Below, in pieces: positions 6,932 through 44,729 of a stretch of 64,000 nt of DNA. Numbering within the stretch: the stretch's first letter is position 1; each line of letters starts with the position of its first letter. Where the stretch lies: contig JAEPNP010000001.1 of NCBI GenBank assembly GCA_017643395.1, positions 267,806-331,805 on the forward strand, read 5' to 3'. Below the pieces are notes generated by a model. That model made no database searches. It was given only the letters and a program-made list of their open reading frames with translations, and was not told the origin of the DNA. Made by a program: the position numbers and the translations under genes. Origin of the DNA: Rhodothermales bacterium. Its GTDB lineage: Bacteria > Bacteroidota > Rhodothermia > Rhodothermales > UBA10348.

Positions 6932-6943
6932 TGGGTTATCTGG

Positions 6944-8573: not shown

Positions 8574-8642
8574 GGAATCAGGGGCTGATTCTCCCGCCTA
8601 CGGGGTCAACCCCGAGAGGTGACGCCCGAGGTCGCCATCCCA

Positions 8643-9830: not shown

Positions 9831-9838
9831 GGGTATTC

Positions 9839-11065: not shown

Positions 11066-11077
11066 GATTCCCGCCGC

Positions 11078-12109: not shown

Positions 12110-12132
12110 GGGAGATCGGCGGTTGGAGGAGC

Positions 12133-17749: not shown

Positions 17750-18424
17750 ATGACTGCAACCAACTACAACTCTCCCTTCGGGCGGCAAGGAACACGGCTC
17801 ATGGCAGTGCTTGCCCTTTTCATGTTCACAAGCACCGTTCAGGCCAGGCAGGACGATCAGCGAAATCCCGTCGCGGAGACGGACGCAGGGACGCACGGCT
17901 TCCTCATGCACGCCCGCACGGGTGCCCTGGGGGTCGGCTACAAAGGCGACCACGATGGAAGCGGTGCCAGTGGCGGATTCAGGCTTGGCTATGCCTTGAA
18001 TGAACACTGGTCGCTCTTCGTGGGACTCGAGGGTTCCAGCGGTGTGGAAGGAGGTGGCGACTTTGACGGCTTGCCCGACAACGCCGACTACGCTTTCGGA
18101 TTCGTGGACTTCGGTGCACGGTATCACTTCCGCCCCCAGCATCGCTGGATGCCATTCGCAGAAGCTGCCTTCTCGGTCATGGGTCTGTCCTATGATGGTG
18201 ATCTGCGCGTTGACAACAAGGAAGTGACCTACGGAGGATTCGGCGCATCCCTGGCGGGTGGTGTGAGCTACTTCGTACTTCCGAAACTGGCCATCGAGGG
18301 ATCCACCATCTTCACGCCCGGCGCCATGCTCTTCAAGGAGATCGGCAGCTCCGATACCGACATCAATCTGGGCACGGCAGGGGTCAGGCTGAGTCTTGGG
18401 CTCTCCTGGTACCCGTTCCGGTAG
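17750..18424 (+). CDS. Outer-membrane beta-barrel (porin family) protein
   Basis: Signal peptide (...FMFTSTVQA), alternating beta-strand pattern, C-terminal ...LSLGLSWYPFR with terminal aromatic residues. Confidence 0.7.
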   Translation: MTATNYNSPFGRQGTRLMAVLALFMFTSTVQARQDDQRNPVAETDAGTHGFLMHARTGALGVGYKGDHDGSGASGGFRLGYALNEHWSLFVGLEGSSGVEGGGDFDGLPDNADYAFGFVDFGARYHFRPQHRWMPFAEAAFSVMGLSYDGDLRVDNKEVTYGGFGASLAGGVSYFVLPKLAIEGSTIFTPGAMLFKEIGSSDTDINLGTAGVRLSLGLSWYPFR

Positions 18425-18523
18425 TCCCTTTCAGGCAACATTACGCCTGTGGATGTCCGATCCATCCTGCGAAAGCAGGGTGCCCGGTTCAGGCACGTGA
18501 GTGACGAATTGGGAGAGTCGGAT

Positions 18524-18559
18524 GCGAGGCCGGCAGTGCATCAGCGCTGCCGGCCTCGC
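18524..18559. terminator. GC-rich hairpin between convergent genes (possible bidirectional terminator)
   Basis: 13-bp perfect stem gcgaggccggcag (18524-18536) / ctgccggcctcgc (18547-18559). Only a weak T tract follows (ctgtttg). Confidence 0.4.
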
Positions 18560-18616
18560 GCGCTGTTTGCGGAGTTTAGGGATCGGGATCGATGGTCCCA
18601 GCGCGGACTCAACCCA

Positions 18617-21013
18617 TCAATCATTTCTGAGCGACTCAACCGGAGCCACACGTGCCGCCCCCAGGGACTGCCAAGCCGTCGTCCCCAGGGCGAGCAGCAA
18701 CACGGATCCGGCCGCGATCAGGAAACTCAAACCCGAGACCCCGGTGTTGTAGGCAAACCCGGCAAGCCATCGGTCGGCCACGATGTACGCCACGGGTGCG
18801 GCGACAAGCATCGCACATGCGACGAGCGCCACGTACTGCTGCGACAGCAGCATCACAATGTCGGTGGCGGTAGCGCCCAGGGCCTTCCGGATGCCCACCT
18901 CCTTTCTGCGCTGTTGGGTAGACAGCGCTACTACGCCGAACAGCCCGATGCACGAAATGAAGATGGCGAGCGCAGCAAACCCCTGAAGGACGTTGCGCAG
19001 ACGCCGCTCCTGCACATACATGGCGTCGATGTTCTCGTCCATGAAGTAGAAGCTTGCCGGCGTCTCCGGACTGAGCCTCGCCCACGTGGTCTGGATATGG
19101 TCGATGGCCCCCGAAATGTCATGGGGGCTGATTCGGGCGATGACCCGGGAGCCGGAGTTGATACCTCCTGCCAGGATGAGTGGCTCAACCGATGCGTGGA
19201 GCGACTCGAAATGGGAGTTCTCAATCACCCCGACGACGTTCCAGACTCGCTCGCTACCCCTGTCCAGTTCGGTCACCTGTTTCGCAATGGCACCATCTGT
19301 CCAGCCGAACGCCCGAACAGCAGCCTCATTGACCAGGATTGCCTGCTGGTCGCCCGCGACGAAGTCGCGACCTTCAGTCACGCGCATCTGCAGGGTGCTG
19401 ACGAAGTCCTGCTCGACCCTCAGGAACGGCACGTTCTGCACATTCTCCCGGTCGACCCCTTGGGGTACCACGGAGCGACGCGCGAGATGTCGCCCCGCAG
19501 GGACACGCGAGGTCACCGTCACACTGGTCACGCTGGGACTTGCCGTCAGCTCCCGCTTCAACACATCGAAAGAGGCCCCGCTCCCCGTCAACACCAGAAG
19601 TTGATCCTGCTCGAACCCGAGCTCCCTGTGCTCGATGTAGTCGAGCTGATTCAGGATGTTCAGAAGGATCACGAGAAGGATGGCCGAGGCCGCGAACTGT
19701 CCCACAGACAACGCTGTGCGGAGCGAGAGCAAACGCGCTCTCCCCATCGAAACAGTTCCTTTCACGGCCTTCACAGGGCTAAATCGCGATATCACGAACG
19801 CCGGGTAGAGGCCTGACAGGACTCCCGTGACCAGCCATACGCCACCCAGGAACACCAGGATTGAGGGATTGGCGAGCACGTCCAGGAACAGCGGTATCCC
19901 TATCGCAGACCGGAAATACGGAAGCGTGAGGGCCACCAGGGCCAGGGCGACAAGAACCGCCCCAAAGCTCAGCACCAGGGACTCGCTGAGGTATTGCCGG
20001 ACCAGTTGGCCCCGTCCAGCCCCCAATGCCTTGCGCACGCCGACCTCCCTGACCCTGCGGAAGGACTGGGCGGTCGTCACGTTTACGAAGTTGATGCAGG
20101 CGATGAGCAGGATGAGCAGCGCCACGCCCGCAAACACGTAGAGGTACATCATGCTGCCGTTCGCACCAAGCTCATCGATTCGGTGCGAGCGCAGATGGAT
20201 GTCCGGAAGGTGCTGGAGCGAGAAGGCCAGGCTGCCGTGCATCGCAATGGGCGCGTGGTTGTCAACAAACGCAGCGAGTTTGCTCTCCAGCGACAGGGCA
20301 GCACGCTTGTCGGGAAGCAACACGTATGTCCACGCCCCCAGCATGCCGGTTTCCCACCGCGGCGGCCCCTGGTTCCACCCGTTCAGCTCCGAGTCAAACG
20401 GAACCAGGAAATCGAAGTCGAAATGAGACTGCGCAGGAGGAGTCTCCACGACACCAGTCACCACCAGGTCACCCGTTCGACCAAGCAGGGTGGCCTTGAT
20501 TGTCTTGTCGATGGGGTCCGCGCCGCGGAAGTACCTCAGTGCCGCCCGCTCTGTGATGACGACGCCGTTCGGAGCGCGCAGCGCGCTCGCCGGGTCTCCG
20601 GCGCGAAACGGGATCGTGAACACATCGAAGACACTCGCGTCCGTGAAGTAGAACCTGGGCTCGGTATACAGCCCGTCTGCGTACCGGACACTCGCTCCGT
20701 TGGTAGCCCTGAATAGCCGCGCGACTTCTTCGATCTCAGGGAAATTGGCGGAGAGGGTTGGCCCCGTCGGGAACGGAGCGTTGGACATCGACTCAACGGA
20801 ATCGCCCACCTGCCGCTCTGACACGACTCGAAAAATGCGGTCGGCATTGCTGTGGTGACGGTCAAAGCTGAGCTCGTACTGCAGGAAGAGGGCGATCAGC
20901 AGACAGCACCCGATCCCTAAACCAAGCCCGAGGATGTTGATCCCGGTGTAGATCCTGCCCCGCCGGAGAGAGCGGACCGCGGTCTTGAGATAATTGGGCA
21001 AGAGAGATGGCAT
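18617..21013 (-). CDS. ABC transporter permease, FtsX/MacB-like (duplicated FtsX domains)
   Basis: 798 aa. N-terminal TM plus large periplasmic domain plus 3 TM, and this unit is repeated twice. Characteristic ...GIRKALGA... motif in both halves. Confidence 0.9.
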   Translation of the reverse strand: MPSLLPNYLKTAVRSLRRGRIYTGINILGLGLGIGCCLLIALFLQYELSFDRHHSNADRIFRVVSERQVGDSVESMSNAPFPTGPTLSANFPEIEEVARLFRATNGASVRYADGLYTEPRFYFTDASVFDVFTIPFRAGDPASALRAPNGVVITERAALRYFRGADPIDKTIKATLLGRTGDLVVTGVVETPPAQSHFDFDFLVPFDSELNGWNQGPPRWETGMLGAWTYVLLPDKRAALSLESKLAAFVDNHAPIAMHGSLAFSLQHLPDIHLRSHRIDELGANGSMMYLYVFAGVALLILLIACINFVNVTTAQSFRRVREVGVRKALGAGRGQLVRQYLSESLVLSFGAVLVALALVALTLPYFRSAIGIPLFLDVLANPSILVFLGGVWLVTGVLSGLYPAFVISRFSPVKAVKGTVSMGRARLLSLRTALSVGQFAASAILLVILLNILNQLDYIEHRELGFEQDQLLVLTGSGASFDVLKRELTASPSVTSVTVTSRVPAGRHLARRSVVPQGVDRENVQNVPFLRVEQDFVSTLQMRVTEGRDFVAGDQQAILVNEAAVRAFGWTDGAIAKQVTELDRGSERVWNVVGVIENSHFESLHASVEPLILAGGINSGSRVIARISPHDISGAIDHIQTTWARLSPETPASFYFMDENIDAMYVQERRLRNVLQGFAALAIFISCIGLFGVVALSTQQRRKEVGIRKALGATATDIVMLLSQQYVALVACAMLVAAPVAYIVADRWLAGFAYNTGVSGLSFLIAAGSVLLLALGTTAWQSLGAARVAPVESLRND

Positions 21014-21044
21014 GAGGGTTGCCGCTTCTATTCCGTCTCGATTC

Positions 21045-21266
21045 CTACCGGAAAGGGGGGCCTTCGCGTGTGGTGAAGTAGGTCCGGCCGTCCAAGAACG
21101 TCACCGTCTCGTGGATGAGCGCATGCTGGCCCGGCTCAGCGATCGGACCTTCACCTTCGGCGACGACGGAATAGGCCAGCCCGGATTCGGTAGTCGGCGG
21201 ACCGGGACTCGCACAGCCGGTGACGACCAGAAGAGCGATGCAGGTAAGCAAGAGAAGACGAGTCAT
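21045..21266 (-). pseudogene. Truncated FKBP-type peptidyl-prolyl isomerase-like lipoprotein (5' remnant)
   Basis: Lipobox VVTGC, then GLAYSVVAEGEGPIAEPGQHALIHETVTFLDGRTYFTTREGPPF, which resembles the first half of an FKBP domain. The ORF stops where the FKBP PFxFxLG... region would continue. Confidence 0.4.
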
Positions 21267-21275
21267 GGCAGGGGG

Positions 21276-22196
21276 TTAAGGAGTGGTGTCGTGGGCGAGT
21301 CGAAAGCCGTCTCCGCTCTCTCGGTACGAGCGGTCATGGTGAAAGCGGGCCGCGGAGCGCAGGTTGACGGGAGCGTTCAGCCAGGAGCCGCCGCGAAGCA
21401 CAAACTCGACGCACGTGGCCTCGTCGTCTTCGGTCCAGCAGTCCTGAACCATTTCCCAGACGTTCCCATGCATGTCGTAGAGTCCGAAGCCGTTCGGCGG
21501 GAAGCTCATGACCGGGTCGGTGGAGGCACGCCCTCCGCATTCACCGGACACGTAGCCGTAACGAGCCTGCGAGCAGTCGGCGGTCTCTCCCCACGAAAAG
21601 CGGCTGGTGGTACCCGCGCGGGCAGCATACTCCCACTCCATTTCGGAGGGCAGCCGGTAGTCCCGACCCGTGAGTTGGTTCAGCCACGGTAGAAACTGAT
21701 TCACCACGTCGTCTCGACTCACCTCGATGACCGGCCGCTGGCCCTTGCCCCAACCGTTGTCACCTCCGTCGGCGTCGTTGTCGGGGCAGGCACCAGCGTC
21801 GATGCAGGTCTGGTAAAGCTCCCAGGTCGCCTCAGTCTCCGCAAGGTAGAAGGGGGCTACGTTCGCCGTTGTCTGCCGCTGCTGGGCTGCTCTATCTGCC
21901 CACTCGTCATCGGCACAAGGCTCATCCTCCAGGCCGCACCCCATCAAGAAAGTCCCGCCGGGGATGGCTTTCATCGTGAAGGATACGCCGTGGACTGTCT
22001 CGACATAGTCTGTTGGGCGGGACGAGCCTGGTTGGTTGGTGTTGCCTTCCGGTGGGTTGGATTTGGCGGGGCTGGTGGTGCCCTCGGGCTCTTGGGCAGG
22101 GGGTTCAGGGTTGCTTTCGAAGCCGTAGGTCAGAGCCAGGAGCGCGACGAAAGCGGCGGCGGCGAGTAGTACAAAGGCCTTCTGCGGACGGGTCAT
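21276..22196 (-). CDS. Formylglycine-generating enzyme (SUMF1/FGE) family protein
   Basis: Motifs YRLPSEMEWEYAARAG, GLYDMHGNVWEMVQDCW, RGGSW. N-terminal TM/signal segment. Confidence 0.9.
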   Translation of the reverse strand: MTRPQKAFVLLAAAAFVALLALTYGFESNPEPPAQEPEGTTSPAKSNPPEGNTNQPGSSRPTDYVETVHGVSFTMKAIPGGTFLMGCGLEDEPCADDEWADRAAQQRQTTANVAPFYLAETEATWELYQTCIDAGACPDNDADGGDNGWGKGQRPVIEVSRDDVVNQFLPWLNQLTGRDYRLPSEMEWEYAARAGTTSRFSWGETADCSQARYGYVSGECGGRASTDPVMSFPPNGFGLYDMHGNVWEMVQDCWTEDDEATCVEFVLRGGSWLNAPVNLRSAARFHHDRSYRESGDGFRLAHDTTP

Positions 22197-32706: not shown

Positions 32707-33654
32707 CTAGCTCAGTCCCCCTGAATGACGCCATCCCGCCACGCGCAACTCGCGTTCAACATATCGCCGATGGCCCATCCGCCTCTGAAGCTCCCGCTCC
32801 AGCGCGGCGATCGGATACAGATTCTGTGGAGCCCTGGGATCCTTGTGAGGTTCCGCCGCGAAGCGGGGGAGTGCCGTACACGAAAAATCAGCGAGAGTTG
32901 CGGCTGTAGAGGACTTCATGTCACCTGAGGCCTCACAGCGGATGATCCCACTCCACGGATTCCCAGCCAAACTTGGCATGGGCAATCGAGCGTACCAGGT
33001 GTATCGTGTAAACTGCTCGCCGATCAGGAAGATGGGCGTTCGTTGTCCGACTTCCAGCTCGGGAATCACGGCTGACAAGTCACTCTCCAAGTAGGCCACG
33101 CGGTGGGTCTTGACGTACCCAATTGCCGGTTGTACGTCCCGCCCGCTTCCAATTGGACCGTCGAACACCACGACCGCATCTTCCTCCAAGGAGATATTCC
33201 GGGCCACATCCGCCTCAATTGCCCGCATATCTACTTGAAGTGCGGACATCAAGGAATCGACGTCGTCGGCCTGTACCGCCCGGGGCGAGTAAACACCAAC
33301 ACTTGACCGCAAGTCGGTGGGTCCAGCACGAGCGATAAGTCGTCTCTCGACGCGAGTGCTACAAATCTCAGCGGAGTCGCCACACCTGGCGACGCCGGCG
33401 GCGAAACTTGCGCATATCCCGGGGCGCGTTTCCCCGTCTTCAAGCGTTATCCAGACTCTCGCATCAATGCGTCGAACCCCATCGATGAAATAGACGACAC
33501 GAGGCGGCCGCTGCATCTCGGGTGCGATCGGCCGCCACTCTCCCCGAGTCATCTCAACCTCCACATCAACAACCGAACTGGTCGGCTGCTCAAGTGCCTC
33601 GGCTCCCAAAGGGCTTCCATATTCCGGAGCCCATGGCTCCACGGCGATCTTCAT
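32707..33654 (-). CDS. NurA-like nuclease (putative)
   Basis: 315 aa. N-terminal acidic motif YFIDGVRRID, comparable to the NurA IDGS catalytic Asp motif. The start codon lies 1 nt after the rad50-like stop (TGAAATG). It is the last gene of the herA-mre11-rad50 cassette. Confidence 0.6.
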   Translation of the reverse strand: MKIAVEPWAPEYGSPLGAEALEQPTSSVVDVEVEMTRGEWRPIAPEMQRPPRVVYFIDGVRRIDARVWITLEDGETRPGICASFAAGVARCGDSAEICSTRVERRLIARAGPTDLRSSVGVYSPRAVQADDVDSLMSALQVDMRAIEADVARNISLEEDAVVVFDGPIGSGRDVQPAIGYVKTHRVAYLESDLSAVIPELEVGQRTPIFLIGEQFTRYTWYARLPMPSLAGNPWSGIIRCEASGDMKSSTAATLADFSCTALPRFAAEPHKDPRAPQNLYPIAALERELQRRMGHRRYVERELRVAGWRHSGGLS

Positions 33655-33655
33655 T

Positions 33656-36049
33656 TCAGACAGCCATTTTCGTAATCGACGACACGTTTCCCTCCTTGTA
33701 GAGTTCGAAACGCACCGGCATCCGTTCGGCTAGATCTTGGACGTGGGTAATGAGTCCGATCATGCGACCCCCAGCGCCCAATTCCTCCAGGGCGCTAGCG
33801 ACGGTATCAAGTGTTTCCGGGTCTAGTGTCCCAAACCCTTCGTCCAGGAAAAGCGCCTCTAGGTTTGCCCCTCCGCGCACACCCAACTCTGCGACCTGGT
33901 CGGCAAGGGCCAGTGCCAGTGACACCGAAGCGAGGAACGTCTCCCCGCCGGACAGCGACTTCGCCGACCGCCTCTCATCTGCGTTCAGATGATCGATCAC
34001 GACGAACTCGTTCTGGTCCCCAACCTCCAAAGAATAGGCTCCTGAAGACAACTCTCTAAGGGTCTTGCTGGCCCCGAGGACGAGCGCCTTAAGAGCGCGC
34101 TTAATCATCCACCCTTCGAAGTACTTCGCACCGAGGAGCCGCGAGAGTTCTCGAGCGGTCCGCCCAGCGGAATCCTCTTGTCTTGCCCGGTCTTGAAGTT
34201 GACAGGCTTTCTCAAGCTGCGCCTGGAGATCCGCGGCAGCCTTTTCAGCTTTCGCATAGGCGCTCTGAACGGCACCGATGGGGTTCTCTCCTTCCTTTAC
34301 TTCGACACCGGTACGCGCGAGGCTTTCCTTAAGCCCCTTGAGGATACCCTCCATCTCGGCCTGCTTGGATCGCCTCATCTCTTCTAAGGCGTCAAGTTTC
34401 GGCCTGAGTCGCTTCGCCGCTGCGATTGCCCACTGCTCCAGACCCTTCCATGAGGCCAGGAGATCGCCCTCGACGCGATCTGGCGGATCGAGGCCAGCCC
34501 GGGAGGCATCACCCCGAGCCTCCTTCCACTTCTCCCATGCCGCGACCACCATTCCCGCTTGAAGCCCGGCTTTCTCCTGAGCGACCTGCCTTTTTCGCTC
34601 GATAGCGCCCTCCGAAGCGATGGCAGACCTTACCCGGGCATCCAGGTCGTCAACTCGCGCGAGGTCCTTTGCGAGCACTTCCAACTCAGGGGTCTTTTCG
34701 AGCTGCTTTGCTAGATCCTTGAAGCGCTTCTCGGCCTCTTGAAAGCGGGCCTCAGATCGAGCGGCAGACTTCTCAATCTTGCCCAGATTATCTGTTGCTG
34801 CCTTGAGGTCCGCCTTAGCCTTCTTGACGACTTCACCCAGCGCCGCCAGGTCGGCCGTCCCAGAATGGTCCGGTAAGTCAACCACAACCTGAAGACAAAC
34901 CGGACACGGCTCGCCTGGAACTAAAGACCTTGCGAGATGCGCTGCTTGATGACGGTTTTGAGCCGATCGGAGGTCACTCTCAGAGCGGGTCAATCTGTCT
35001 TCGGCTTGCGCCAAGGCCTCACTAGCCGTTTCCAGCCTCGTTTTTCCGTCCTTGGAATCAGCCTTGAGCTCGACCAGCTGCGCAGCCACTGTCGCTGCCT
35101 CCTCTCGTCGGCTAAGCTGGACCTTGAGATCGCCTCGGTCAGGGAGTTCCTGTCTCTCCTCGTTCAACGCCGAGCGCTCAAGGCGAACCTTTTTCAGTTC
35201 CTCCGCTAGCTTATCGACCTTCAGGTTGGCTTCATCCAATTGTCCGGCAGCGACCGTCGCAGCCGCTGGAATTCTCAGCTTAGCCACGATGTCGGACTGA
35301 GTAGCGAGTGTCTCTGACTTCCTCGCTATCTCTTTTAGTTCGTCTCGCAACTGTTCAAGTTCGTCCCCTGCCTTCGCAGCCGCTAGCTGAGTGGCCTTCA
35401 GCGCTTTGAGCACCTCTTCCGATCTCTTGAGCGCGTCCGGTGTGACACCTTGGTAATCCTCTTCTAGACGCCGCTGTGCGATCTCGAATTCCGACCTGTG
35501 CCCGTCCGCCCGCCGGGAAGCCTCCCGTCGCAGGTCCTCGTAGAGCCCAAGCCCCAGCAGACTGATCAACAGATCTTGGCGCTCCGCCGGATTCGCGTGC
35601 ATGAACTTCTGGAACTCGCCCTGAGGCAACACCACGCAACGAGTAAAGTCCTCATAATTCAGGCCAATGATGCTCGTTATTGCGTTCTCGATGTCGCGAG
35701 TGCTATCGGCTAGGACCTGCACGCCCTGTTCCAATCGCGCCTCCTTGGTGGTGGCCCTTTCAGGTGAGAGCATTCGCACAACCCTCGTAGCTGTGTATTC
35801 CTTACCACCAGCATCGAACCTGAGGCAAACCCGGGCCTCATTGCGCCCCTTACTCACGATGGCGGTCGTGGCCTGCTTACCGTAGCGCGGGACCGCGCCG
35901 TACAACGCAAACGTCATGGCGTCGATAATGCTCGATTTCCCGGATCCCGTGGGACCGCTTAGAACGAACAGGTCGGCGTCCTCGAAATCGATCTCTACCT
36001 CATCTCTGAAAGAAGCAAAGCCGTGGATGGTTAGGTTCTTAGGGCGCAT
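33656..36049 (-). CDS. Rad50/SbcC-like SMC-family ATPase
   Basis: Walker A GPTGSGKSS, long coiled-coil, central zinc hook CPVC (34895-34906), signature SLSGGETF, Walker B LFLDEGFGTLD, H-loop LITHV. The ATG at 36049 overlaps the mre11-like stop by 11 nt. Confidence 0.9.
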   Translation of the reverse strand: MRPKNLTIHGFASFRDEVEIDFEDADLFVLSGPTGSGKSSIIDAMTFALYGAVPRYGKQATTAIVSKGRNEARVCLRFDAGGKEYTATRVVRMLSPERATTKEARLEQGVQVLADSTRDIENAITSIIGLNYEDFTRCVVLPQGEFQKFMHANPAERQDLLISLLGLGLYEDLRREASRRADGHRSEFEIAQRRLEEDYQGVTPDALKRSEEVLKALKATQLAAAKAGDELEQLRDELKEIARKSETLATQSDIVAKLRIPAAATVAAGQLDEANLKVDKLAEELKKVRLERSALNEERQELPDRGDLKVQLSRREEAATVAAQLVELKADSKDGKTRLETASEALAQAEDRLTRSESDLRSAQNRHQAAHLARSLVPGEPCPVCLQVVVDLPDHSGTADLAALGEVVKKAKADLKAATDNLGKIEKSAARSEARFQEAEKRFKDLAKQLEKTPELEVLAKDLARVDDLDARVRSAIASEGAIERKRQVAQEKAGLQAGMVVAAWEKWKEARGDASRAGLDPPDRVEGDLLASWKGLEQWAIAAAKRLRPKLDALEEMRRSKQAEMEGILKGLKESLARTGVEVKEGENPIGAVQSAYAKAEKAAADLQAQLEKACQLQDRARQEDSAGRTARELSRLLGAKYFEGWMIKRALKALVLGASKTLRELSSGAYSLEVGDQNEFVVIDHLNADERRSAKSLSGGETFLASVSLALALADQVAELGVRGGANLEALFLDEGFGTLDPETLDTVASALEELGAGGRMIGLITHVQDLAERMPVRFELYKEGNVSSITKMAV

Positions 36050-37199
36050 GCGAGTCCTCCAGAAGCTCATCGAACAACGATATTATCTCCTCATTCTCGA
36101 TGTCCGATTCGGCTAGGTACTGAGCAAATAGCTCACGAGGCGACCCATACAGATCCTCGATATTGGTTCTTGAATCCTCCTTGGCTTCTCGGTCATTCTG
36201 GTCTTCCAGCGTTACCTCTACGACACCTGAATGAATTTCGCGAACCTCGTCAGCCAAGCCTGGTCTTCGGGCCTCAGCCAGCCGTACGCGAACGAAGGCG
36301 TCCCCAAGGCCATCCGCATGCAGTCTGAATTGCTCGACAGTGCCCTTCCAGGTGAGCAATGCGCGTCCTGACGTCAATGGGACTCGGGTGACCCGAGCGG
36401 GCCTTCCCGGCTTGGCCTCAATGGAGAGAACACATTTTTCCGCTGATTTATCTCCAAAGTCCATGTACAGTGGCGATCCCGGGTACCAAACGGGTGCACC
36501 CGCATCGATGCGCTGCACCCCGTGTAGGTGACCGAGCCCGACATAGTGCGTGTTGGTAGGGAAGACTGCCGCCGGGACCACGTAGTCCAGAATTGACTGC
36601 GACTCCCTCTCTCCCCCGACTCTGGCACCTCCTTGCGTTGTTACATGAGCGGCAACCAGGTTGACCGTTTCTTTGTCAAAGTCTTTCGTCAGAGCCTCGA
36701 CAATCTGACGATATCGATCGCGATACTTACCCTCGTGCTGGCTTGAGTCAAGGTTCATCAGGTCATCAGCCTTGACGATTGTGCGTCTAGAGAGAAACGG
36801 GATGCTGGCAATGACTGCGCGTTCACCTGTACGCTCAACCGTCAATTCGACAACCCCTCCATCCTTGGGTCGCGACGCAACCCAACTCGCGGTGACGTTG
36901 GCAAGCCTTAGCAACGGCGCCACGGCCCGCAGTCGTTTCGGGCTATCGTGGTTGCCCGCCACTACGTGTACGTGGGCACCGGTTGAGGCTAGTTTCATGA
37001 GGGCCTCGTACACGATTTCTTCGGACTCCGGACTTGGAGCCCCGGCGTGGAATTGATCTCCCGTCACAAGGATCAGGTCGGCGTTGTGCTCCGCAGCGAT
37101 GGCAACGATCTCCTCCAGAACAGCACGATGCTCGTCGGCTCGGGAGCGACCACGCATGCCCTGTCCGACATGCCAATCAGCCGTGTGAATTATCCTCAT
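36039..37199 (-). CDS. Mre11/SbcD-like calcineurin-fold nuclease
   Basis: Phosphoesterase motifs HTADWH, VTGDQFH, VAGNHD, AAH, GLGHLH. 386 aa. Confidence 0.92.
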   Translation of the reverse strand: MRIIHTADWHVGQGMRGRSRADEHRAVLEEIVAIAAEHNADLILVTGDQFHAGAPSPESEEIVYEALMKLASTGAHVHVVAGNHDSPKRLRAVAPLLRLANVTASWVASRPKDGGVVELTVERTGERAVIASIPFLSRRTIVKADDLMNLDSSQHEGKYRDRYRQIVEALTKDFDKETVNLVAAHVTTQGGARVGGERESQSILDYVVPAAVFPTNTHYVGLGHLHGVQRIDAGAPVWYPGSPLYMDFGDKSAEKCVLSIEAKPGRPARVTRVPLTSGRALLTWKGTVEQFRLHADGLGDAFVRVRLAEARRPGLADEVREIHSGVVEVTLEDQNDREAKEDSRTNIEDLYGSPRELFAQYLAESDIENEEIISLFDELLEDSHAP

Positions 37200-37211
37200 G
37201 GCGGACTGCGT

Positions 37212-38906
37212 CTAGGCGTCCTCAAGCCCTTCAAATGGGTCCGAGTCGGCTGCAGGCGATCTAGGTGCGACCTCTGAAGGTCTGGTGGCCCAAGCAGGGA
37301 ACGGAAACCCGATGACGAGCGGGATTGGAAGTTCGGGCTGCGATAGAATCATCGTTCCCGGTTTGGCAATCGTGGCTCGCTGACGATGTGTGGGCGGAAG
37401 AAACCCGTATTCGCTGCGCTGGGCCTCCGCGCTATCCAGGCGGCCTACTACCCTTATTGCAGAGTTGGCGATTACCCGACGTTCGACTTCACTTGCAGTT
37501 TGCTGCGCTCCTAGCAGGATTATTCCTAAGGAGCGCCCCCGTTCTGCGACGTCAAGAAGAATCTCCTTGATCGGACTCGAGCCCTCTCGAGGAGCGTACT
37601 TGTTCAGCTCATCGAGCACTACGAACAGTAGGGGCCGGGCTTGACCTGTCCGTTCCTTCTCCTCAAAGGCGCGTTGTAGAGTTACCCCGACGACAAAGCG
37701 CTTTGCTCGATCGTGAAGGTTGTGAATATCGATCACGGTTACCTGCGATTGTCGCTCGATACGGTGGTTCTCGGGGTGGGGTATGTCGCCGCGAATGAGA
37801 TGCCCGATATGCCTTCGCGCTGAATGGAGACGGCGAATGAAGGCATTAATTGTTCCTTGACCGATGGACTGACCGGCCCAAGTCTGCCGGGTATTGTCAT
37901 CCTCCAGACGCTGATGTATAAACTCAATCAATTGGTCGAAGGTGCGGAATTCGCGGCCATCGATAGATACTCCACCGCCTACCTGGGGATTGGCCCTTTC
38001 TCGAAGCTGCGCAGCGACGTTGTGGACTACAATTGTGTACTGCTGACGGTCATCCCCCGCGTCGGCGAAAAGGAAGGGGAGCAACTGGTCTTCACAGAAC
38101 GCTGATAGCGTCCAAAAGAAGGAACCGATTTCTTTGTCCCGACTGCTGACGTCAGGAGCAGCATCGGGATGTCCGGGCCGAGGTGGCGCCCAAAACTCCA
38201 CGCTCCCGAAGGCTCCCGGCATCAACCCGATTTCGCTGTACCGGGCCTCCTCATTGGCATCCAGTCTTGAGTTCGGCTGATCAAGGAACAGCAAATCCTC
38301 CCCCTTCACATTGAAGATAATAGCCTTCGAATTCATGGCCTCAGCCCCCAGCGCGTCATTGAAGAGGCTGTAAAGGAGAAAGGTGGCGTAGGTTGTCTTC
38401 GTGGCGACACCGGAAACGCCGCTAATGTTGACATGCGCCCCCCGGCGCCCATCCAGAAACTCGAGGTTTACGAATACTGGCTGGCCGTCTCGGGAAGATC
38501 CAGCGATGAGGCGCTCCTCCATCCCATCGAAGAACAGCGCCTGATCACGGTCGTCACCCACAGCAAGTCGTACCGCTTCACCCGGTCGCGGTGGAACAAA
38601 CAGCTCCGGCTCGATGCGAGTGGTGAGGACCTCCGCAACCTCGGTCACCTCGGCCGGAAGCACGCCCTCCTCGATCAGATAGACGTCACTATCAAAGCGC
38701 GCACCCTCGTGCCGAGCGATGACCTGGGTGACGATGCCATATAGACTTACGGGTTCGGCCTCTCCGGGGAGGTGCCTCTCAAGTGCGACGACGTCGTCTA
38801 GCTGCAGGTACTTGTCCTTCGGCAAGGCAACCCAAAATGAGAGTGGACTTGCGTCCTCTGTGCCAAGGACTCGCGCGCGAATGTCGGTGGTCGATTCGTT
38901 GGTCAA
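37212..38906 (-). CDS. HerA-like (DUF87/FtsK-HerA superfamily) ATPase
   Basis: N-terminal HAS-barrel-like region. Atypical P-loop ISGVSGVATKTT. Walker B LLFVVLDELNKYAP. Arginine-finger region GAQQTASEV. 12 nt upstream of the mre11-like gene. Confidence 0.8.
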   Translation of the reverse strand: MTNESTTDIRARVLGTEDASPLSFWVALPKDKYLQLDDVVALERHLPGEAEPVSLYGIVTQVIARHEGARFDSDVYLIEEGVLPAEVTEVAEVLTTRIEPELFVPPRPGEAVRLAVGDDRDQALFFDGMEERLIAGSSRDGQPVFVNLEFLDGRRGAHVNISGVSGVATKTTYATFLLYSLFNDALGAEAMNSKAIIFNVKGEDLLFLDQPNSRLDANEEARYSEIGLMPGAFGSVEFWAPPRPGHPDAAPDVSSRDKEIGSFFWTLSAFCEDQLLPFLFADAGDDRQQYTIVVHNVAAQLRERANPQVGGGVSIDGREFRTFDQLIEFIHQRLEDDNTRQTWAGQSIGQGTINAFIRRLHSARRHIGHLIRGDIPHPENHRIERQSQVTVIDIHNLHDRAKRFVVGVTLQRAFEEKERTGQARPLLFVVLDELNKYAPREGSSPIKEILLDVAERGRSLGIILLGAQQTASEVERRVIANSAIRVVGRLDSAEAQRSEYGFLPPTHRQRATIAKPGTMILSQPELPIPLVIGFPFPAWATRPSEVAPRSPAADSDPFEGLEDA

Positions 38907-38966
38907 CTTCTCAGGTTCGTCTCGTTCTTAAAGGATCACGTCGCTTGCGGACTGCTGCATAGCCTG

Positions 38967-39599
38967 CTATCTGCCCGTACCGCAGCCGTCCAGATACTCC
39001 CGAATTTGGTGCTCGACCGACTGCAGCTGCATGCCCTCTAGACCATTGAGCAAATCGTGTAGCATTGAGGCAAGACCCTCGGCGCCCGTACTCAGCTTGG
39101 TACGTCGCCAGACTTTCTCGACTTGAACTGCCGCGTACTCGCGGGTGAGCGTATGCTCGTGCTCGTTGGACCGGTTCTGCAGGCGCAGAGCTCTCGACCA
39201 ACAAACAATGGAGAGGACATGATAGACGACCGCCTCTTTCGCCCTTCCTTCGCGCTGGAGGTGCAGTCTCATCTTATCGTAGATCTGATACGAGTCCATC
39301 AGAATCATGTCTTTCGACCTCATTTGACCCGGGTATCCGCTTGATAGCAGCTCCTGGTATTCCGCCCAGGCCTCCTCAGCCCTTCCGTCCAACTGAAGCA
39401 GCATGGGGACCCTCAGAAAGTGCTTAACCGAATACTGCGTGGAAGTGCGCTCCATCAGACTGTGTGCCTCGCGTAGAGCCGCGATAGCCCTACCATACTG
39501 CTTGGCCTTTTTTAGCTGCGTTGCGGCCTTGCCCAAATCGTAGATCTGGTCTTCCACCGGGGCTTGGTGCCGTTTCTTAAAGAGATCAGAAAGTCCCAT
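38967..39599 (-). CDS. Hypothetical all-helical (TPR-like) protein
   Basis: 210 aa, predicted helical, with repeated GRA..A...Y/L hairpin-like segments. No catalytic motif recognised. Lies between the Gabija-like pair and the herA cassette. Confidence 0.5.
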   Translation of the reverse strand: MGLSDLFKKRHQAPVEDQIYDLGKAATQLKKAKQYGRAIAALREAHSLMERTSTQYSVKHFLRVPMLLQLDGRAEEAWAEYQELLSSGYPGQMRSKDMILMDSYQIYDKMRLHLQREGRAKEAVVYHVLSIVCWSRALRLQNRSNEHEHTLTREYAAVQVEKVWRRTKLSTGAEGLASMLHDLLNGLEGMQLQSVEHQIREYLDGCGTGR

Positions 39600-39766
39600 A
39601 GCTAGAATCCTTACCTGTGGCTCAGTCTAATGTGACATAGGCCTGAAGCGTATCCAACAAGCCGCCTCTATTTAGTAAAGGGTCGCCAAGCGCCTATGTC
39701 GCGGGGCATTGAGTTGCGCAGCGCTGTTTTTGCTCGACGCAGAATGCAGCGAGGCGGCTAGTCTGA

Positions 39767-41815
39767 TCAAGCGCACCAGGAAGACACCCCGTTCTTGATC
39801 TCCCCAACCGACCAGCCGCGCTGCCTCAAGCTTGCCACCCGGAGACTCATCGCCTCATCATCCCCCAAAGCATCTCGGGGAACGGCAAGACAGACAAGGT
39901 GACTGGGACGAGTCATTGCAACATAGGTCAGTTGCAGGCGAGCCCGATCTTGTACACCTGCGCCGGCCAAGTTCACCTTTTCGCCGAGTAACCACGGCAA
40001 CATCCTTTTCGCTGAATGGCCGTTGCGATAGGTGTTCAAGAGTAAGGTAGCCAGATGGGTCTGGCCCTTTACCGAGTGCACCGATCCGAGGCGTATGTCG
40101 ACGCTTCGTCCTGTGGCATTCTCCACGCGGTAAACGTTCGGACCCAGATCCCCTGGCACCGCTCCAGCCAGGGACGCGAGCAACGGATCGGGTGGGTCCG
40201 AATTGAGGAAATGGTCGTTTGGCTCAGGCGCCGCACCAGAAGCGTCGAGAGCAGCCGCCACTTGCAGTATGTCAGCCTGCCTCTGAGCCCACGATGCGAT
40301 CGTCGGAGCCTCCAAATCGAGGAGATATGTCTTTAGTAGGCGGCGGTACGCGGAAGCCGCGGCATCGTTGTCGGCAAGCGCATCGACAATCGATCGGTGA
40401 CTCGGCACTCGCCGCCCAAGAGATGTGGCCCCACCGCGGCGTCGCGCCAACCGAACAAGACCCGCTGCAAGTTTTTGGACTGCAGAGGCAAGGTCTCCCC
40501 TATCCCGCACGGAGGCTTGCGCCACCCGGACATATTGTAGAAGCGTTCCGGGATGCGGATCGCTGCGCCCTACCTCGGCCTTGTAGCCGCTCCAGTAGTG
40601 GGAAACGGTCTTCGGGAAATGGGGGTGGTCAACGGTCACGTCGCTCGCGTCTTTATGGACGGCGCCGACGGCAACGACGTCACCCTCGGCGAGCGCTTCG
40701 TTTTCAAACGAGGAGAGCACGTGAAGGCCGTAGGCATTCAGGACTCCCTTGGCCTCGGGCGGATCAAATACAAATATTGCGTTCTGGCAACTGTGTGGTG
40801 CCCCTCTCACTGCTCGCGGGCCGACTCCCTCGAGGCCCCCTGGGCCTACTGCATGGACCGCAAAGGGGGATGCGAGCTTCGCGATCTCCGGTCCAAAGCG
40901 GAAGGTCTTAGAAATCTCCAGGTGCGTTGAAGAAGCTGGAAACCCACCAAGAGATTCAGTTTTGGCTCTGGAATCGTCGAAAATGCTCTGATTCGGATCA
41001 CCGACCCGCTGCAGGGCGACAGCGGAGTTTGCTCTCGGAAACACAGCCTCTACAATGCCCATTTGGAGAGCTGAGGTGTCCTGCACTTCGTCCACCATGA
41101 CCAGCGGAAACCGGCTCTGTAGCCAGGTTGAGACGCTTGGGCAATCCTCAAGCAGCGCCTTGGCCCAGACAAACATCTCGTCATAGCAGAAGTATCCTGC
41201 TTCGGACGACTTTCCTACGGCCTTCTTGGCGATTTCGTAGGTCGCAGTGCCTGGTTTAGACGGAAAGTCTCCATTGACAAGTTTGACTTGGAGCTCGCGA
41301 TCCTTTAGACGCACGCTCTCGAACTCGCGATGAGACCTCCTTAGGTAGGAGCTGACCATCTCGTATTCCCAGATGCTAATCGAACGGCGCCGGTACAAAT
41401 TGGTCGCGTCATCATCGACGGTCGCCGCGGGATAGCCATTCGAGTTCAGCCACGGAAGTGCAAGAAACCGGTTTACAAATCCATGGATTGTATCAATAAA
41501 GTGTGGGTGGGATAGCAGCTGCTGCCCGACTACCGTCCCCCGCAAACGCAACTGGATTTCCTCACGCGCTGCGTTCGTATGGGACAGGACGCAGATGCCC
41601 TTCGTTCGGTGTGGCCACTTCCGGGCAAGGATTGCCAGCTTTGCGACGATTAGCGTCGTCTTCCCGCTCCCCGGACATGCAGACAGGTCGATCGTCTGCC
41701 GTGCCCGCAGGAACTCCCGACGGGACTCGTCGAAGCCGTGTAGGCCCATCACGCGACAGACCCATGCGACATCCTCCTCGTCAACCCTTGGGACAAGGGA
41801 CCCAGGATTAGTCAT
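39767..41815 (-). CDS. gajB: UvrD/Rep-like SF1 helicase (GajB-like)
   Basis: Motif I CPGSGKTT, motif II VMVDEVQDT, motif III VGDPNQSIF, motif V/VI SVHSVKGQT and YVAMTRPSHLV. The ATG at 41815 overlaps the upstream stop by 8 nt (ATGACTAA). Confidence 0.82.
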   Translation of the reverse strand: MTNPGSLVPRVDEEDVAWVCRVMGLHGFDESRREFLRARQTIDLSACPGSGKTTLIVAKLAILARKWPHRTKGICVLSHTNAAREEIQLRLRGTVVGQQLLSHPHFIDTIHGFVNRFLALPWLNSNGYPAATVDDDATNLYRRRSISIWEYEMVSSYLRRSHREFESVRLKDRELQVKLVNGDFPSKPGTATYEIAKKAVGKSSEAGYFCYDEMFVWAKALLEDCPSVSTWLQSRFPLVMVDEVQDTSALQMGIVEAVFPRANSAVALQRVGDPNQSIFDDSRAKTESLGGFPASSTHLEISKTFRFGPEIAKLASPFAVHAVGPGGLEGVGPRAVRGAPHSCQNAIFVFDPPEAKGVLNAYGLHVLSSFENEALAEGDVVAVGAVHKDASDVTVDHPHFPKTVSHYWSGYKAEVGRSDPHPGTLLQYVRVAQASVRDRGDLASAVQKLAAGLVRLARRRGGATSLGRRVPSHRSIVDALADNDAAASAYRRLLKTYLLDLEAPTIASWAQRQADILQVAAALDASGAAPEPNDHFLNSDPPDPLLASLAGAVPGDLGPNVYRVENATGRSVDIRLGSVHSVKGQTHLATLLLNTYRNGHSAKRMLPWLLGEKVNLAGAGVQDRARLQLTYVAMTRPSHLVCLAVPRDALGDDEAMSLRVASLRQRGWSVGEIKNGVSSWCA

Positions 41816-43850
41816 TTGCGTCCACCTCAGGCTTCTCCTGGTCGATGGGCGCACTAGGTGCGACATCTCCTGTAGCGTAAGCTATGGCATCGACCACGTA
41901 GCGCGGCAACTTTCCAGCAAATGCCTGGCGATCGAAGTCGTCGCCTTCTCCTTGGGCAGAGAGAGCGTTGGCTAGATATTGAGCGGCGATTGCTTTGGAT
42001 GCGCCACCCGAGGTGAAGAGCCGATAAACGTGGGTGCAAAGCACCTCATCATTGCCTTTCGACTTCGCCTGGAGTTCTCCGAAGCTGGTTGTCGCGGCTG
42101 CTTGGACATCATCTACGGACTTCGTCCCGCCCGTGATCAAGCCGTCTTTCTGCGCTAGTTTGGCAGCAACGTAGACATCCTCGGCCAACCCGCAATATGC
42201 AAGGTCGTACTCGAGCGTCCAGAAGTCCGCAACGAACGTACGGACCGACTGGCCATCGGAGGCTCGGATGCTTTCGCGCCACTCGGCGAGCGCTTGATCT
42301 TTAGACTTGTCCTCGTCGCCAAAGTCGCGCATTGCCTTCCAGCGACGCTTTGGACTTGTCCAGACATCGTCTGTCTCGTCAGCAACCAGGCCAAGAATTA
42401 CAGGCGCGCAGTCAGGCATGACGTCCATGTCCGCTAGGCAGGCGACAGGGACGGAGATATGCGGCACTGACCCATCAGCCCGCTGAAAAATCCTGCTGAA
42501 CCGCCTAAGCCCGGTTCCGCCGACATTGACTATGGAAACTCCGTGCTCTGTGAGGTCTGTTCCCAAGAGCCGGGCAATCGTCGGAAGCAATAAAGCCTCT
42601 GCGTCTCCTTCGACGATGATGACCCCGTGCGCAAACAAGAGGTTCGCCTTTGTCACGTCCAGAAACCGTTCAAGGAAGCGATAGTCGCTGGCGTCGAGCC
42701 GGGTCTGGCCTTCTGCGAGCGAGTAGGCACGCGCGCCCTCTAGCACGACGAGGTTCTTGAGCGGTATCGTCGATGCAAGGTTTGGACTGTGGGTCGAAAG
42801 GACGACCTGAACCTTCCGCGGGGACTCGCTGACCTCGCCACCTGCCGCTTTCGCGAGGAAGTCCATCAACCGGAGTTGACGCTGGGGATGAAGGTGTGCC
42901 TCGGGTTCTTCGATGAGCAATAGAGGTAGACCATCGGGTTCCCGTCCCAGAAGGAGCAACTCGCAGGCCATGTACAGAATGTTGTTCGAGCCAAGACCGT
43001 AATGACCACGTGCGCTCAGTGTTGACGCGTCAAATAGGCCGATCTCAAGTCGCTCCAAGATTCTCCGGAGACGTATCTGGTCGCTCCCCTCTTCAATGAA
43101 ATCAATCCGGCCCTTCAGGCGATCTCCTCTCAAAAAGAGGGAGGAGAGGTACATCGTGTTGATCGCGTCCTGGGCTCCACTTACCCCTTGATGAGTGTTC
43201 ACGCTGTGTCGGAGATAGTCAGCCAGCCCAAGGAGGCTCAGCTTGCCCACGGTGTCCGGATCGGCCGGGAGAAGCTGCTCGTCGAAGGCCTCACCTTCAC
43301 TTATTCCGGGTACGTTCGCAAGTATCTGGGACAGCCTTGAGCCACGGCCCGACGACATCTCTCGCGCAGCGTCGCGAAGCGGCCGGAGATACGCGCTAGA
43401 AAGCTGTTCCCGCACAGATTGCTCGAAGGCGGGCCCCGTGCCATCGACGCCACTGCGAACCGATACGTCAACCCACCTACGGGCGCCCGGGGAATTGCTC
43501 CGCCTACGCGCGGACCAGTTGACGAGAAGACAGACTTCGCCGCTTTCGTACGTCAGATACTCAACGAGTGCACCCTTCTCCTCATCGTCGAGACCGCTTA
43601 AGCGACACTGAATCGATATGTCGCCCGCCTGCTCGCCGAGCTCATTAATGTGAAAGTCCTCGGGCTGGACACGGATATAGCTCGCGTCACGCGTTAGGAG
43701 CGCATAACGAATGGCGTCGATCACTGCAGACTTGCCACAATCGTTGCGCCCGACCAGCGCGGTCACCCCATTACTAAGTGATAGTTCGAGCCTTTGATCA
43801 CCCTCGCCGAACTGACGAAAGTTGCGCAGCCTTACTCGTGACAGGTACAT
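41808..43850 (-). CDS. gajA: OLD-family ATP-dependent endonuclease (ABC-type ATPase + Toprim; GajA-like)
   Basis: N-terminal RLRNFRQF and Walker A GRNDCGKSAV. Walker B/D-loop LLLIEEPEAHLHP. Toprim motifs IIVEGDAEALLLP and ADMDVMPD, plus WTLEYDL. Confidence 0.86.
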   Translation of the reverse strand: MYLSRVRLRNFRQFGEGDQRLELSLSNGVTALVGRNDCGKSAVIDAIRYALLTRDASYIRVQPEDFHINELGEQAGDISIQCRLSGLDDEEKGALVEYLTYESGEVCLLVNWSARRRSNSPGARRWVDVSVRSGVDGTGPAFEQSVREQLSSAYLRPLRDAAREMSSGRGSRLSQILANVPGISEGEAFDEQLLPADPDTVGKLSLLGLADYLRHSVNTHQGVSGAQDAINTMYLSSLFLRGDRLKGRIDFIEEGSDQIRLRRILERLEIGLFDASTLSARGHYGLGSNNILYMACELLLLGREPDGLPLLLIEEPEAHLHPQRQLRLMDFLAKAAGGEVSESPRKVQVVLSTHSPNLASTIPLKNLVVLEGARAYSLAEGQTRLDASDYRFLERFLDVTKANLLFAHGVIIVEGDAEALLLPTIARLLGTDLTEHGVSIVNVGGTGLRRFSRIFQRADGSVPHISVPVACLADMDVMPDCAPVILGLVADETDDVWTSPKRRWKAMRDFGDEDKSKDQALAEWRESIRASDGQSVRTFVADFWTLEYDLAYCGLAEDVYVAAKLAQKDGLITGGTKSVDDVQAAATTSFGELQAKSKGNDEVLCTHVYRLFTSGGASKAIAAQYLANALSAQGEGDDFDRQAFAGKLPRYVVDAIAYATGDVAPSAPIDQEKPEVDAND

Positions 43851-44362: not shown

Positions 44363-44729
44363 TGGAGATGGCGGGAGTCGAACCCGCGTCCGAATGGATG
44401 CCCAGTCAGACATCTACGCTCATAGTCGACCTATTGGAGTTCTCGCCCGCGGGCCATTGCCAGTCGACAAGGCGACCCGAAGGCACAGTCTGATAGAGTT
44501 TCGCGCCTCAGTACTCAGACGGCGTCTGAGGCGCTAGACCATTAAGCATGATGCCTCATGACCCACCAATGGTCAGGTGAGCTAGAGACAGATAGCGGGA
44601 CTAAGCCGCCATCGCGTACGAGTAATCGTTCGCAGTTGCAGTGTTCATGGGATTATTAACGAGCATCACCATGAATGGCTCGAAGCGCAGCCTGCTACAC
44701 ATTCCACCCGTCGAAACCGTGACATCCCC
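44363..44729 (-). ncRNA. ssrA: tmRNA (SsrA)
   Basis: The 5' end GGGGAUG pairs with the 3' CAUCUCC plus discriminator A (G3:U wobble). T-arm GCGGG-UUCGACU-CCCGC. Internal tag reading frame GCG AAC GAU UAC UCG UAC GCG AUG GCG GCU UAG = ANDYSYAMAA* (44601-44633). CCA is not encoded. Confidence 0.92.

Follow-up and report, generated by a model that had tools for sequence, protein, structure and literature searches.

A 64,000-nucleotide stretch of the genome of a Rhodothermales bacterium, here called the window (all positions are in its numbering unless a locus is named), carries on its minus strand, at 32707-38906, a cassette of four genes in the order herA, mre11, rad50 and nurA, next to a Gabija defense system. 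The locus raises the question of whether such a cassette is an undescribed, archaeal-style system directed against mobile genetic elements (MGEs), as a preliminary description of the window had proposed, or a repair module that has been acquired laterally, which it had named as the alternative. We favor, at a probability of about one half, the reading that a bacterial operon of wide occurrence is present in the window as an accessory copy gained by lateral transfer, which would play a dual role comparable to that of RecBCD and would be retained beside nuclease-based defense. A foreign origin is suggested by the GC content at third codon positions (GC3), which is 0.63 as against 0.75 (Mann-Whitney p = 3e-4) when the block of genes that includes the cassette is compared with the other long open reading frames (ORFs) of the window, and by the closest relatives of the cassette, each of which has different flanks. 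The dual role is favored because the operon shows core-like synteny in some lineages and resides in a defense island here, with no domain change between the two.

The cassette, as recovered from ORF calls and their translations, is composed of the following genes:

37212..38906, minus strand: herA, 564 amino acids (aa), TTG start; HerA/FtsK-family hexameric dsDNA translocase
36039..37199, minus strand: mre11/sbcD, 386 aa; Mn-dependent phosphoesterase nuclease
33656..36049, minus strand: rad50/sbcC, 797 aa from an internal Met; short SMC-like ABC ATPase with a CPVC zinc hook
32707..33654, minus strand: nurA, 315 aa; RNase-H-like 5'-3' exo/endonuclease

The genes are tightly coupled, with a 12-nt gap between herA and mre11, an 11-nt overlap between mre11 and rad50, and a 1-nt gap between rad50 and nurA. 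The longest ORF of rad50 (33656-36070) would encode 804 aa, and the internal Met at 36049 yields the 797-aa product with which the public annotation agrees. The gene identities, order and coupling distances given in the preliminary description are thus borne out by the ORFs, the motifs and the family profiles. Proteins 100% identical to those of the window are present in the Rhodothermales metagenome-assembled genome (MAG) GCA_017642665.1.

Affinities of the four proteins

The HerA and NurA ORFs themselves matched no Pfam or NCBIfam family. Alignment profiles of their homologues (A1 for HerA and A2 for NurA) were searched against the chains of the PDB. A1 recovered the HerA of Deinococcus radiodurans (drHerA; 7F6D_B/7WRW/7WRX) over its full length, at residues 6-549, with E = 3.9e-179, and A2 recovered the NurA of the same organism (drNurA; 7F6D_H, E = 1.9e-40) and that of T. 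maritima (1ZUP, TM1739; E = 4.4e-15), with no archaeal HerA or NurA structure among the PDB matches at E <= 1 in either search. Some of the NurA homologues also matched the Pfam family PF09376 (NurA). The HerA protein is organized into a HAS-barrel, a RecA-like ASCE ATPase core and a helix-bundle, and its translation shows an SGVATKT P-loop and a VVLDE motif. The functional residues reported for drHerA, namely K175/T176, D220, D487/E488 and R495 (PMC9960219), align with K170/T171, D204, D432/E433 and R440 of the window protein, all of them invariant in A1, such that the Walker A Lys/Thr, the catalytic acidic residue, the Walker B Asp-Glu pair and the pore Arg are all present. Similarly, W8, D53, K201 and R309, which are needed for the activity of drNurA (PMC9960219), align with W8, D58, K182 and R274 of the window NurA, again invariant in A2, with D58 lying in the FIDG motif of the translation; the catalytic Asp and the phosphate-binding Lys/Arg are thus in place. 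A degenerate P-loop in HerA was considered and rejected, since drHerA carries the identical SGVATKT and is seen with ADP bound in its crystal. Judged by these profiles and residues, HerA and NurA are orthologues of the characterized NurA-HerA end-resection complex of D. radiodurans.

In the public annotation NurA is cut to 180 aa, so that W8 and D58, the catalytic residue, are dropped, and the HerA start is placed 27 codons too far downstream. The long ORFs of both are, on the homologue alignments, the correct ones, because conservation begins at E6/W8 of NurA and at R12 of HerA. Truncated annotations of this kind hide such cassettes from domain searches, and they are easily missed.

The translation of Mre11 displays all five phosphoesterase motifs (D8-x-H10, G47-D48, N83-H84, H185 and H224-x-H226). 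It passes the NCBIfam sbcd model TIGR00619 with 177 bits (cutoff 77.65), scores 184 bits with sbcd_Bac versus at most 55 bits with the archaeal Mre11 models, and matches the Pfam families Metallophos (4.9e-15) and SbcD_C. Rad50 likewise possesses a GPTGSGKS Walker A motif, a Q-loop, the CPVC hook, an SLSGGE signature, an FLDEGFG Walker B motif and an H-loop, and matches the Pfam families AAA_23 (2.4e-24), SMC_N and SbcC_Walker_B. Its best NCBIfam match is sbcc TIGR00618 with 281 bits, which falls under the curated full-length cutoff of 478.5 because the coiled coil is short, and archaeal Rad50 models reach at most 125 bits. For both proteins the bacterial models outscore the archaeal ones two- to three-fold, and by this measure Mre11 and Rad50 are of the bacterial SbcD/SbcC type, not archaeal. 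A recent archaeal origin was considered and set aside, given that the archaeal Mre11/Rad50 models lie far below the bacterial scores. Thus, the archaeal affinity claimed for the cassette holds for its gene order and fails for its proteins, which are of bacterial type, with HerA and NurA orthologous to the D. radiodurans complex. As the functional residues and motifs are intact and conserved, all four enzymes are predicted to be active.

Spread and conservation of the operon in bacteria

The protein database contains more than 8000 relatives of the window HerA at about 70% identity, and among GTDB species representatives this HerA is found in at least 563 confirmed loci. Acidimicrobiia and other Actinomycetota dominate among the matches listed, including the cultured Glycomyces and Micromonospora; the other carriers among these matches are Gammaproteobacteria, Acidobacteriota, Gemmatimonadota, Dehalococcoidia (Chloroflexota) and Bacteroidota. 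Gene order was surveyed in the best 80 of the at least 563 loci, 57 of which have enough downstream sequence. In 54 of these 57, herA, mre11, rad50 and nurA lie on one strand in the same order, 41 of them compactly. The median identity to the window proteins in the best 80 loci is 65% for HerA, 45% for Mre11, 37% for Rad50 and 42% for NurA; across at least six phyla HerA is 62-71% identical and its operon partners 32-55% (L005-L084). The four-gene form seems to be how this HerA family is usually arranged in bacteria. This runs against the earlier statement that bacteria normally carry only sbcCD and that NurA-HerA pairs are mostly confined to the Deinococcus-Thermus lineage. The HerA tree broadly follows phyla, suggesting that HerA descended mostly vertically, with a few transfers.

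Clustering of all flanking ORFs yielded no fifth conserved gene. In some Actinomycetota other genes are found inside the cassette (DAO, thioredoxin/DsbA, a pyridine-nucleotide oxidoreductase, PhoX and an ECF sigma factor), but these are unrelated, metabolic and unsystematic. In a Nitriliruptorales MAG (L014:5259-7346, minus strand) a 695-aa fusion of a PrsW protease and an EndoU nuclease, resembling polymorphic toxins, lies between mre11 and rad50. A metagenome scan with the single HerA protein gave 3 loci, none of them close.

In about 10-12 species of Acidimicrobiia the operon has syntenic flanks with gpsA, the ychF GTPase, an aminotransferase, EamA/MFS transporters and GSDH, and in four Glycomyces species it is again syntenic, with a RibD_C gene overlapping the start of herA. 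Defense genes were counted in flanks of up to 5 kb. A PADLOC scan of 412 such near-flank proteins from about 70 loci, a set that leaves out 86 proteins of L073-L084, gave strong matches for about 4% of the proteins, spread over about 10 of the loci, 19 at the most. These comprise one Gabija, PglX, type I restriction-modification (RM), Dpd-like genes, Hhe/PDC-S37 and a few PDC families. Family-wide, the operon is not a defense-island gene set; it is core-like in some lineages and an island gene in others. A conserved syntenic core locus, which the preliminary description had named as evidence against a defense system, is accordingly found in Acidimicrobiia, whereas the flanks differ in the clade to which the window's copy belongs.

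A clade of cassettes in defense islands

The closest relatives of the window's cassette, picked by sequence similarity alone (HerA 74-89% and NurA 57-84% identical), are monophyletic with it in a neighbor-joining tree of HerA, and are here termed the island clade. Counting the window, 7 of its 9 independent contexts have defense genes within about 5 kb, versus 10-19 of 70 loci elsewhere (Fisher p = 2e-4 to 5e-3). The expected enrichment near defense genes was thus found for this clade and is absent family-wide, where most loci have no defense gene within 5 kb. The neighborhoods of the clade are as follows:

Window: Gabija neighbor (PADLOC)
L085: complete Shango SngA/B/C (E = 8e-64, 6e-173, 3.5e-267), plus PDC-S21
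L093: Old-family nuclease upstream
L094: PRTase, GmrSD fragment, HicAB, rve fragment
L095: PDC-S37/Hhe; cassette cut down to the C-terminal part of rad50 and nurA by an insertion sequence (IS) (7225-9992)
L096: CapP-like HTH + M78 pair and HNH upstream; DISARM DrmD (3e-194) and DrmMI/type IIG (E = 0) downstream
L097: PDC-S68 (2e-169) and a DruE-like helicase; fragmented herA, mre11 and rad50 (3596-8652)
L091: CI-like repressor; short contig
L086: IS-flanked remnant of the C-terminal part of rad50 and nurA (L086/L087; 7972-12477)

This association hints at a role in defense for the window's lineage. L085 holds the closest relative of the window's cassette, with the Shango and PDC-S21 flanks at 902-1951 and 9078-14538. 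A pair of genes encoding an XRE-HTH protein and an M78 peptidase (CapP-like, PADLOC 2e-16) lies upstream of herA at L096:2812-3835 and L097:286-2620, where in L097 it is split by an ISL3 transposase. These pairs are reminiscent of the CapH/CapP or DdrO/PprI switches that respond to DNA damage.

The cassette also decays repeatedly and is dispensable, as seen from an IS transposase inside rad50 in L002 (13385-15163), from the remnants in L086 and L095, and from the fragmented genes in L097, whose contig has 2x coverage, so that these fragments may be assembly errors.

A second recurrent feature is the presence of a co-directional Gabija system adjoining the cassette in three separate HerA clades, represented by the window, L002 and L015 (3 of about 95 loci). 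In L002 Gabija (18319-21683) follows nurA after 131 nt, with a type II RM pair upstream, and in L015 (16138-18887) gajA of a divergent Gabija, identified by PADLOC and phmmer, starts about 20 nt after nurA. The adjacency to Gabija and Old nucleases may reflect functional coupling or a coincidence of hot spots.

Genomic setting and composition of the window's copy

The genes next to the cassette in the window are:

38967..39599, minus strand: orf210, a 210-aa orphan between gajB and herA; co-directional, outside the conserved cassette
39767..41866, minus strand: gajB, Gabija UvrD-like helicase; PADLOC GajB E = 1.1e-167; Pfam UvrD-helicase
41808..43850, minus strand: gajA, Gabija OLD-family ATPase-TOPRIM nuclease; PADLOC GajA E = 1.6e-192; Pfam AAA_15/AAA_21/OLD-like_TOPRIM
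32707..43850, minus strand: block of seven co-directional genes (Gabija, orf210 and the cassette) that borders ssrA on its 3' side
44363..44729, minus strand: ssrA (tmRNA; ARAGORN), tag peptide ANDYSYAMAA; flank of the block

The Gabija-like neighbor and ssrA noted earlier are therefore confirmed by PADLOC and ARAGORN. The combination that defines Gabija, a GajA with an ABC ATPase and an OLD-type TOPRIM domain and a UvrD-like GajB helicase, is present in the neighbors at 39767-43850 only, and none of the four cassette genes is a Gabija component. The public annotation places the start of gajB at 41752. As had been anticipated, a check against PADLOC-DB v2 did not call the cassette itself, which gave weak HerA/mad8 and LmuB-type P-loop matches and none for NurA. 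A strong terminator-like hairpin of 16 pairs lies just after ssrA (44322-44287), followed by about 440 nt of non-coding sequence before gajA, and no intrinsic terminator is predicted between the genes of the block. Downstream of the cassette, Pfam identifies a TrkA-type K+ channel together with an S9 peptidase. The product of orf210 has no Pfam, NCBIfam or PADLOC match and no homologue in the approximately 95 related loci; its AlphaFold2 model is all-helical (pLDDT 65), with TPR domains as the top, weak Foldseek matches (E >= 0.05), and it might possibly adopt a helical, TPR-like fold.

The bulk GC content of the cassette is lower (0.58 versus 0.615-0.644), as the preliminary description had noted, though modestly so; the contrast is clear in GC3, which amounts to 0.60-0.65 in the six long genes of the block and to 0.748 +/- 0.064 in the remaining 24 long ORFs of the window. 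The block of Gabija, orf210 and the cassette is clearly foreign in composition. An integrated mobile element at ssrA was considered and discarded, as there is no integrase among the called genes of the window and no att-type direct repeat of the ssrA 3' end within 31.5-45.5 kb. In the closest relative available for an empty-site comparison, identified by an 83% identical orthologue of the K+ channel, both the cassette and Gabija are absent, but synteny is broken on both sides, which deprives this absence of weight. An origin by carriage on phages was likewise rejected, with no cassette on IMG/VR viral contigs and with phage records holding distant HerA paralogues only. Plasmid records gave 6 HerA matches, on large replicons of Streptomyces and Nonomuraea and on cyanobacterial plasmids, which are too few to argue for plasmid carriage. 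The HerA homologues on a 451-kb Streptomyces plasmid and on plasmids of Sphaerospermopsis and Nostoc (NZ_CP134205.1, AP018315.1, NZ_CP091916.1) are 40-60% identical. The few plasmid copies and the lack of viral ones imply that mobility is modest.

Functional predictions and alternative explanations

The sequence affinities suggest that the operon couples an SbcCD-type Mre11-Rad50 (MR) complex to a Deinococcus-type HerA-NurA complex in an ATP-driven machine acting on free dsDNA ends. By orthology, the hexameric ring of HerA would thread dsDNA and pump it from an end (PMC9960219, PMC12977600), and a NurA dimer docked on the HAS-barrel face would melt the duplex and digest the 5' strand or both strands. 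Mre11-Rad50 would, in line with the established biochemistry of SbcCD/MR, bind and tether ends and nick or open those that are blocked or form hairpins. We infer that the four proteins, made from a translationally coupled operon, act in series, with MR recognizing and cleaning the end and HerA6-NurA2 then carrying out long-range resection or degradation; the association of HerA with NurA is seen here as co-operonic linkage alone (the 54 of 57 loci). The genomic context suggests that the window's lineage moves horizontally and settles in defense islands. There, any free DNA end might be processed, leading to recombinational repair of the host chromosome, and linear or nuclease-cut invader DNA might be finished off, for instance when cut by the adjacent Gabija or, in the relatives, by neighboring RM, DISARM or Old systems, with collateral breaks being repaired in the same role.

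The published data on HerA-NurA bear on this proposal in different ways. The D. radiodurans complex resects or degrades dsDNA ends in vitro, the nurA-herA mutants of this organism are about 10-fold more resistant to UV and mitomycin C (MMC), and the authors call the in vivo role of bacterial NurA-HerA controversial (PMC9960219). In Thermus the hepA (herA) knock-out is sensitive to UV and heat and transforms about 10-fold worse (PMC5448004). In archaea the four-gene operon is essential, functioning in homologous recombination repair (PMC4351679), and a mode of foreign-DNA destruction has been proposed for archaeal HerA-NurA (PMC12977600).

Several points weigh against the dual-role reading. The dual role is argued from the analogy to RecBCD and from guilt by association, the 62-71% identity of HerA across phyla is far above that of typical defense proteins and fits a housekeeping function, and domains have been neither gained nor lost in the island-clade proteins as compared with the core-type copies. 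Accessory genes of any function gather in hot spots of defense genes, and the hosts behind all nine island-clade contexts may be related to one another. Further, the Thermus hepA phenotype argues for recombination or repair in Thermus, and against a barrier to incoming DNA there (PMC5448004).

A more specialized possibility is that immunity has recruited the island clade, which would serve either to finish the degradation of linear or nuclease-cut invader DNA or as a stand-alone barrier to it, and which might be coupled to OLD-family/Gabija nucleases. We advance this tentatively, as an idea worth stating but not one that we expect to hold. If true, such recruitment would provide bacterial NurA-HerA, the knock-outs of which are paradoxically not damage-sensitive, with the physiological role that it has lacked, and a role in finishing or defense would mean that the RecBCD paradigm also covers a second end-processing machine, one of archaeal style. 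If such a role is false, the cassette would be an ordinary accessory repair operon.

The latter is the essence of a further explanation, in which the cassette is purely a module of recombinational repair by end resection at double-strand breaks, acquired horizontally and lying beside Gabija and ssrA incidentally, in a variable hot spot. Orthology to end-resection enzymes, high sequence conservation, housekeeping synteny in Acidimicrobiia and Glycomyces and the lack of defense neighbors at most loci family-wide all accord with it, as do the essential archaeal operon (PMC4351679) and the UV and heat sensitivity of Thermus hepA mutants (PMC5448004). However, chance placement hardly explains seven differing defense contexts among nine in one clade, or three independent co-directional adjacencies to Gabija, one with a gap of just about 20 nt; the Deinococcus mutants are more resistant to DNA damage rather than less (PMC9960219); and in the regions upstream of herA the LexA box GAAC-N4-GTTC was found in 0 of 87 loci and a PafBC/RecA-NDp-like motif in 1-2 of 87. 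Hence we consider pure repair possible but rather unlikely as the full account. The laterally acquired repair module named as the alternative in the preliminary description is nevertheless at least as well supported as a defense system.

That a dedicated, stand-alone anti-MGE system is encoded here, one that works apart from host repair to destroy invading foreign DNA, whether linear or replicating, appears unlikely. The occurrence of differing defense genes in 7 of 9 contexts is the classical signature by which defense systems are discovered, and it is joined by the frequent IS erosion of the cassette, the foreign GC3 common to it and Gabija, the CapH/CapP-like HTH and M78 regulator pairs upstream of herA in L096 and L097, and the co-directional Gabija in three separate HerA clades. 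The lack of damage sensitivity in the D. radiodurans knock-out (PMC9960219) and the HerA ATPases that serve as scaffolds of the SIR2-HerA and DUF4297-HerA systems point in the same direction. Against this, the cassette has no element for self/non-self discrimination, no sensor domain and no clade-specific domain change; it is core-like and syntenic beside housekeeping genes where it is commonest among the matches listed (Acidimicrobiia); its HerA is extremely conserved; and there are no phage or viral copies and few plasmid ones, in keeping with modest mobility. It is also absent from the PADLOC models, although such an absence would equally be expected of a system that is just undescribed, and the DNA-uptake data from Thermus point the opposite way (PMC5448004). 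An undescribed anti-MGE system thus stands as a hypothesis, on the strength of the clade's defense context, with its novelty and its archaeal framing overstated.

Finally, that the block is a DNA-transfer module of a mobile element, with a HerA-like pump and the NurA nuclease generating and exporting DNA as in Thermus transjugation, is most improbable. In T. thermophilus, DNA donation by ICETh1 requires TdtA (a member of the HerA/FtsK family) together with a NurA-like nuclease and a type IIG enzyme, all encoded by the element, whose insertion site is the 3' end of a tRNA gene (PMC5365140), much as the window block abuts the small-RNA gene ssrA. However, the window HerA is an orthologue of HepA/drHerA and not of the paralogue TdtA, integrase, att repeats and conjugation genes were not found at the block, Mre11-Rad50 has no place in the ICETh1 model, and in many lineages the operon lies on the chromosome in a syntenic position. 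The four-gene form in hundreds of species, together with the island clade beside nuclease systems, reframes the controversial role of NurA-HerA and makes it testable.

Comparison with known systems

Among the described defense systems, SIR2-HerA and DUF4297-HerA combine a HerA hexamer with an effector nuclease, and Lamassu/Gabija-type systems contain an SMC-like ATPase; like the window's cassette they reside in defense islands. However, the similarity of the window HerA to the HerA of SIR2-HerA and DUF4297-HerA is marginal (PADLOC HerA E = 4e-8 to 4e-3; PDB 1.5e-3 to 0.08), and its Rad50 matches LmuB of Lamassu (7.7e-31) far more weakly than SbcC (1.4e-83). No SIR2, DUF4297 or LmuA partner is present at the cassette. 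By these comparisons the cassette falls outside SIR2-HerA, DUF4297-HerA, Lamassu and Gabija.

SbcCD and RecBCD/AddAB process or degrade dsDNA ends in an ATP-dependent manner and have side roles against foreign linear DNA. The window Mre11 and Rad50 belong to the SbcD and SbcC families, as in the E. coli-type SbcCD, from which they differ in the short Rad50 (797 aa), which lies under the full-length sbcc cutoff. RecBCD/AddAB are SF1 helicase-nucleases, whereas the motor of the window's cassette is a ring translocase combined with an RNase-H-like nuclease. To our knowledge there is no Chi-like control for a HerA-NurA type machine.

The archaeal herA-mre11-rad50-nurA operon of Sulfolobus and Pyrococcus (PMC4351679, PMC2288612) unites the same four functions in one operon and in the same order, with a presumed division of labor in which MR acts at the end and HerA-NurA is the resection motor. 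For Sulfolobus, Mre11 is reported to contact HerA. It differs in that the window proteins are not of archaeal type, the SbcD/SbcC models scoring 2-3 times higher, and in that bacterial and archaeal NurA-HerA are less than 20-27% identical (PMC9960219; PMC5448004). Moreover, the archaeal operon is essential and the window-type operon is frequently eroded by IS.

Within bacteria, the nearest precedent is Oceanithermus profundus, for which it was noted in 2017 that sbcD-sbcC lies downstream of hepA/herA, a bacterial HerA of the same family being followed by SbcD and SbcC; the remark concerns one genome only, with no survey and no link to defense islands, and the passage gives no position for nurA relative to the order seen in the window (PMC5448004). 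No other prior mention of a bacterial herA-sbcD-sbcC linkage was found in the literature searched. The cassette is accordingly not undescribed in the full sense, in that this linkage (PMC5448004) and the idea of foreign-DNA destruction (PMC12977600) have already been published. Relative to the literature searched, how widely and how constantly the four-gene operon occurs in bacteria is new, as are the IS-eroded clade resident in defense islands and the recurrent adjacency to Gabija/OLD nucleases.

The closest characterized counterpart is the Deinococcus NurA-HerA complex (PDB 7F6D, 7WRW, 7WRX; PMC9960219), whose domain layout, SGVATKT P-loop, catalytic residues and DNA-pore residues recur in the window proteins. 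In Deinococcus and Thermus nurA and herA form a pair with no adjacent mre11-rad50 (PMC9960219; PMC5448004), whereas in the window's cassette herA and nurA bracket mre11-rad50 in a single operon, which sits in a defense island.

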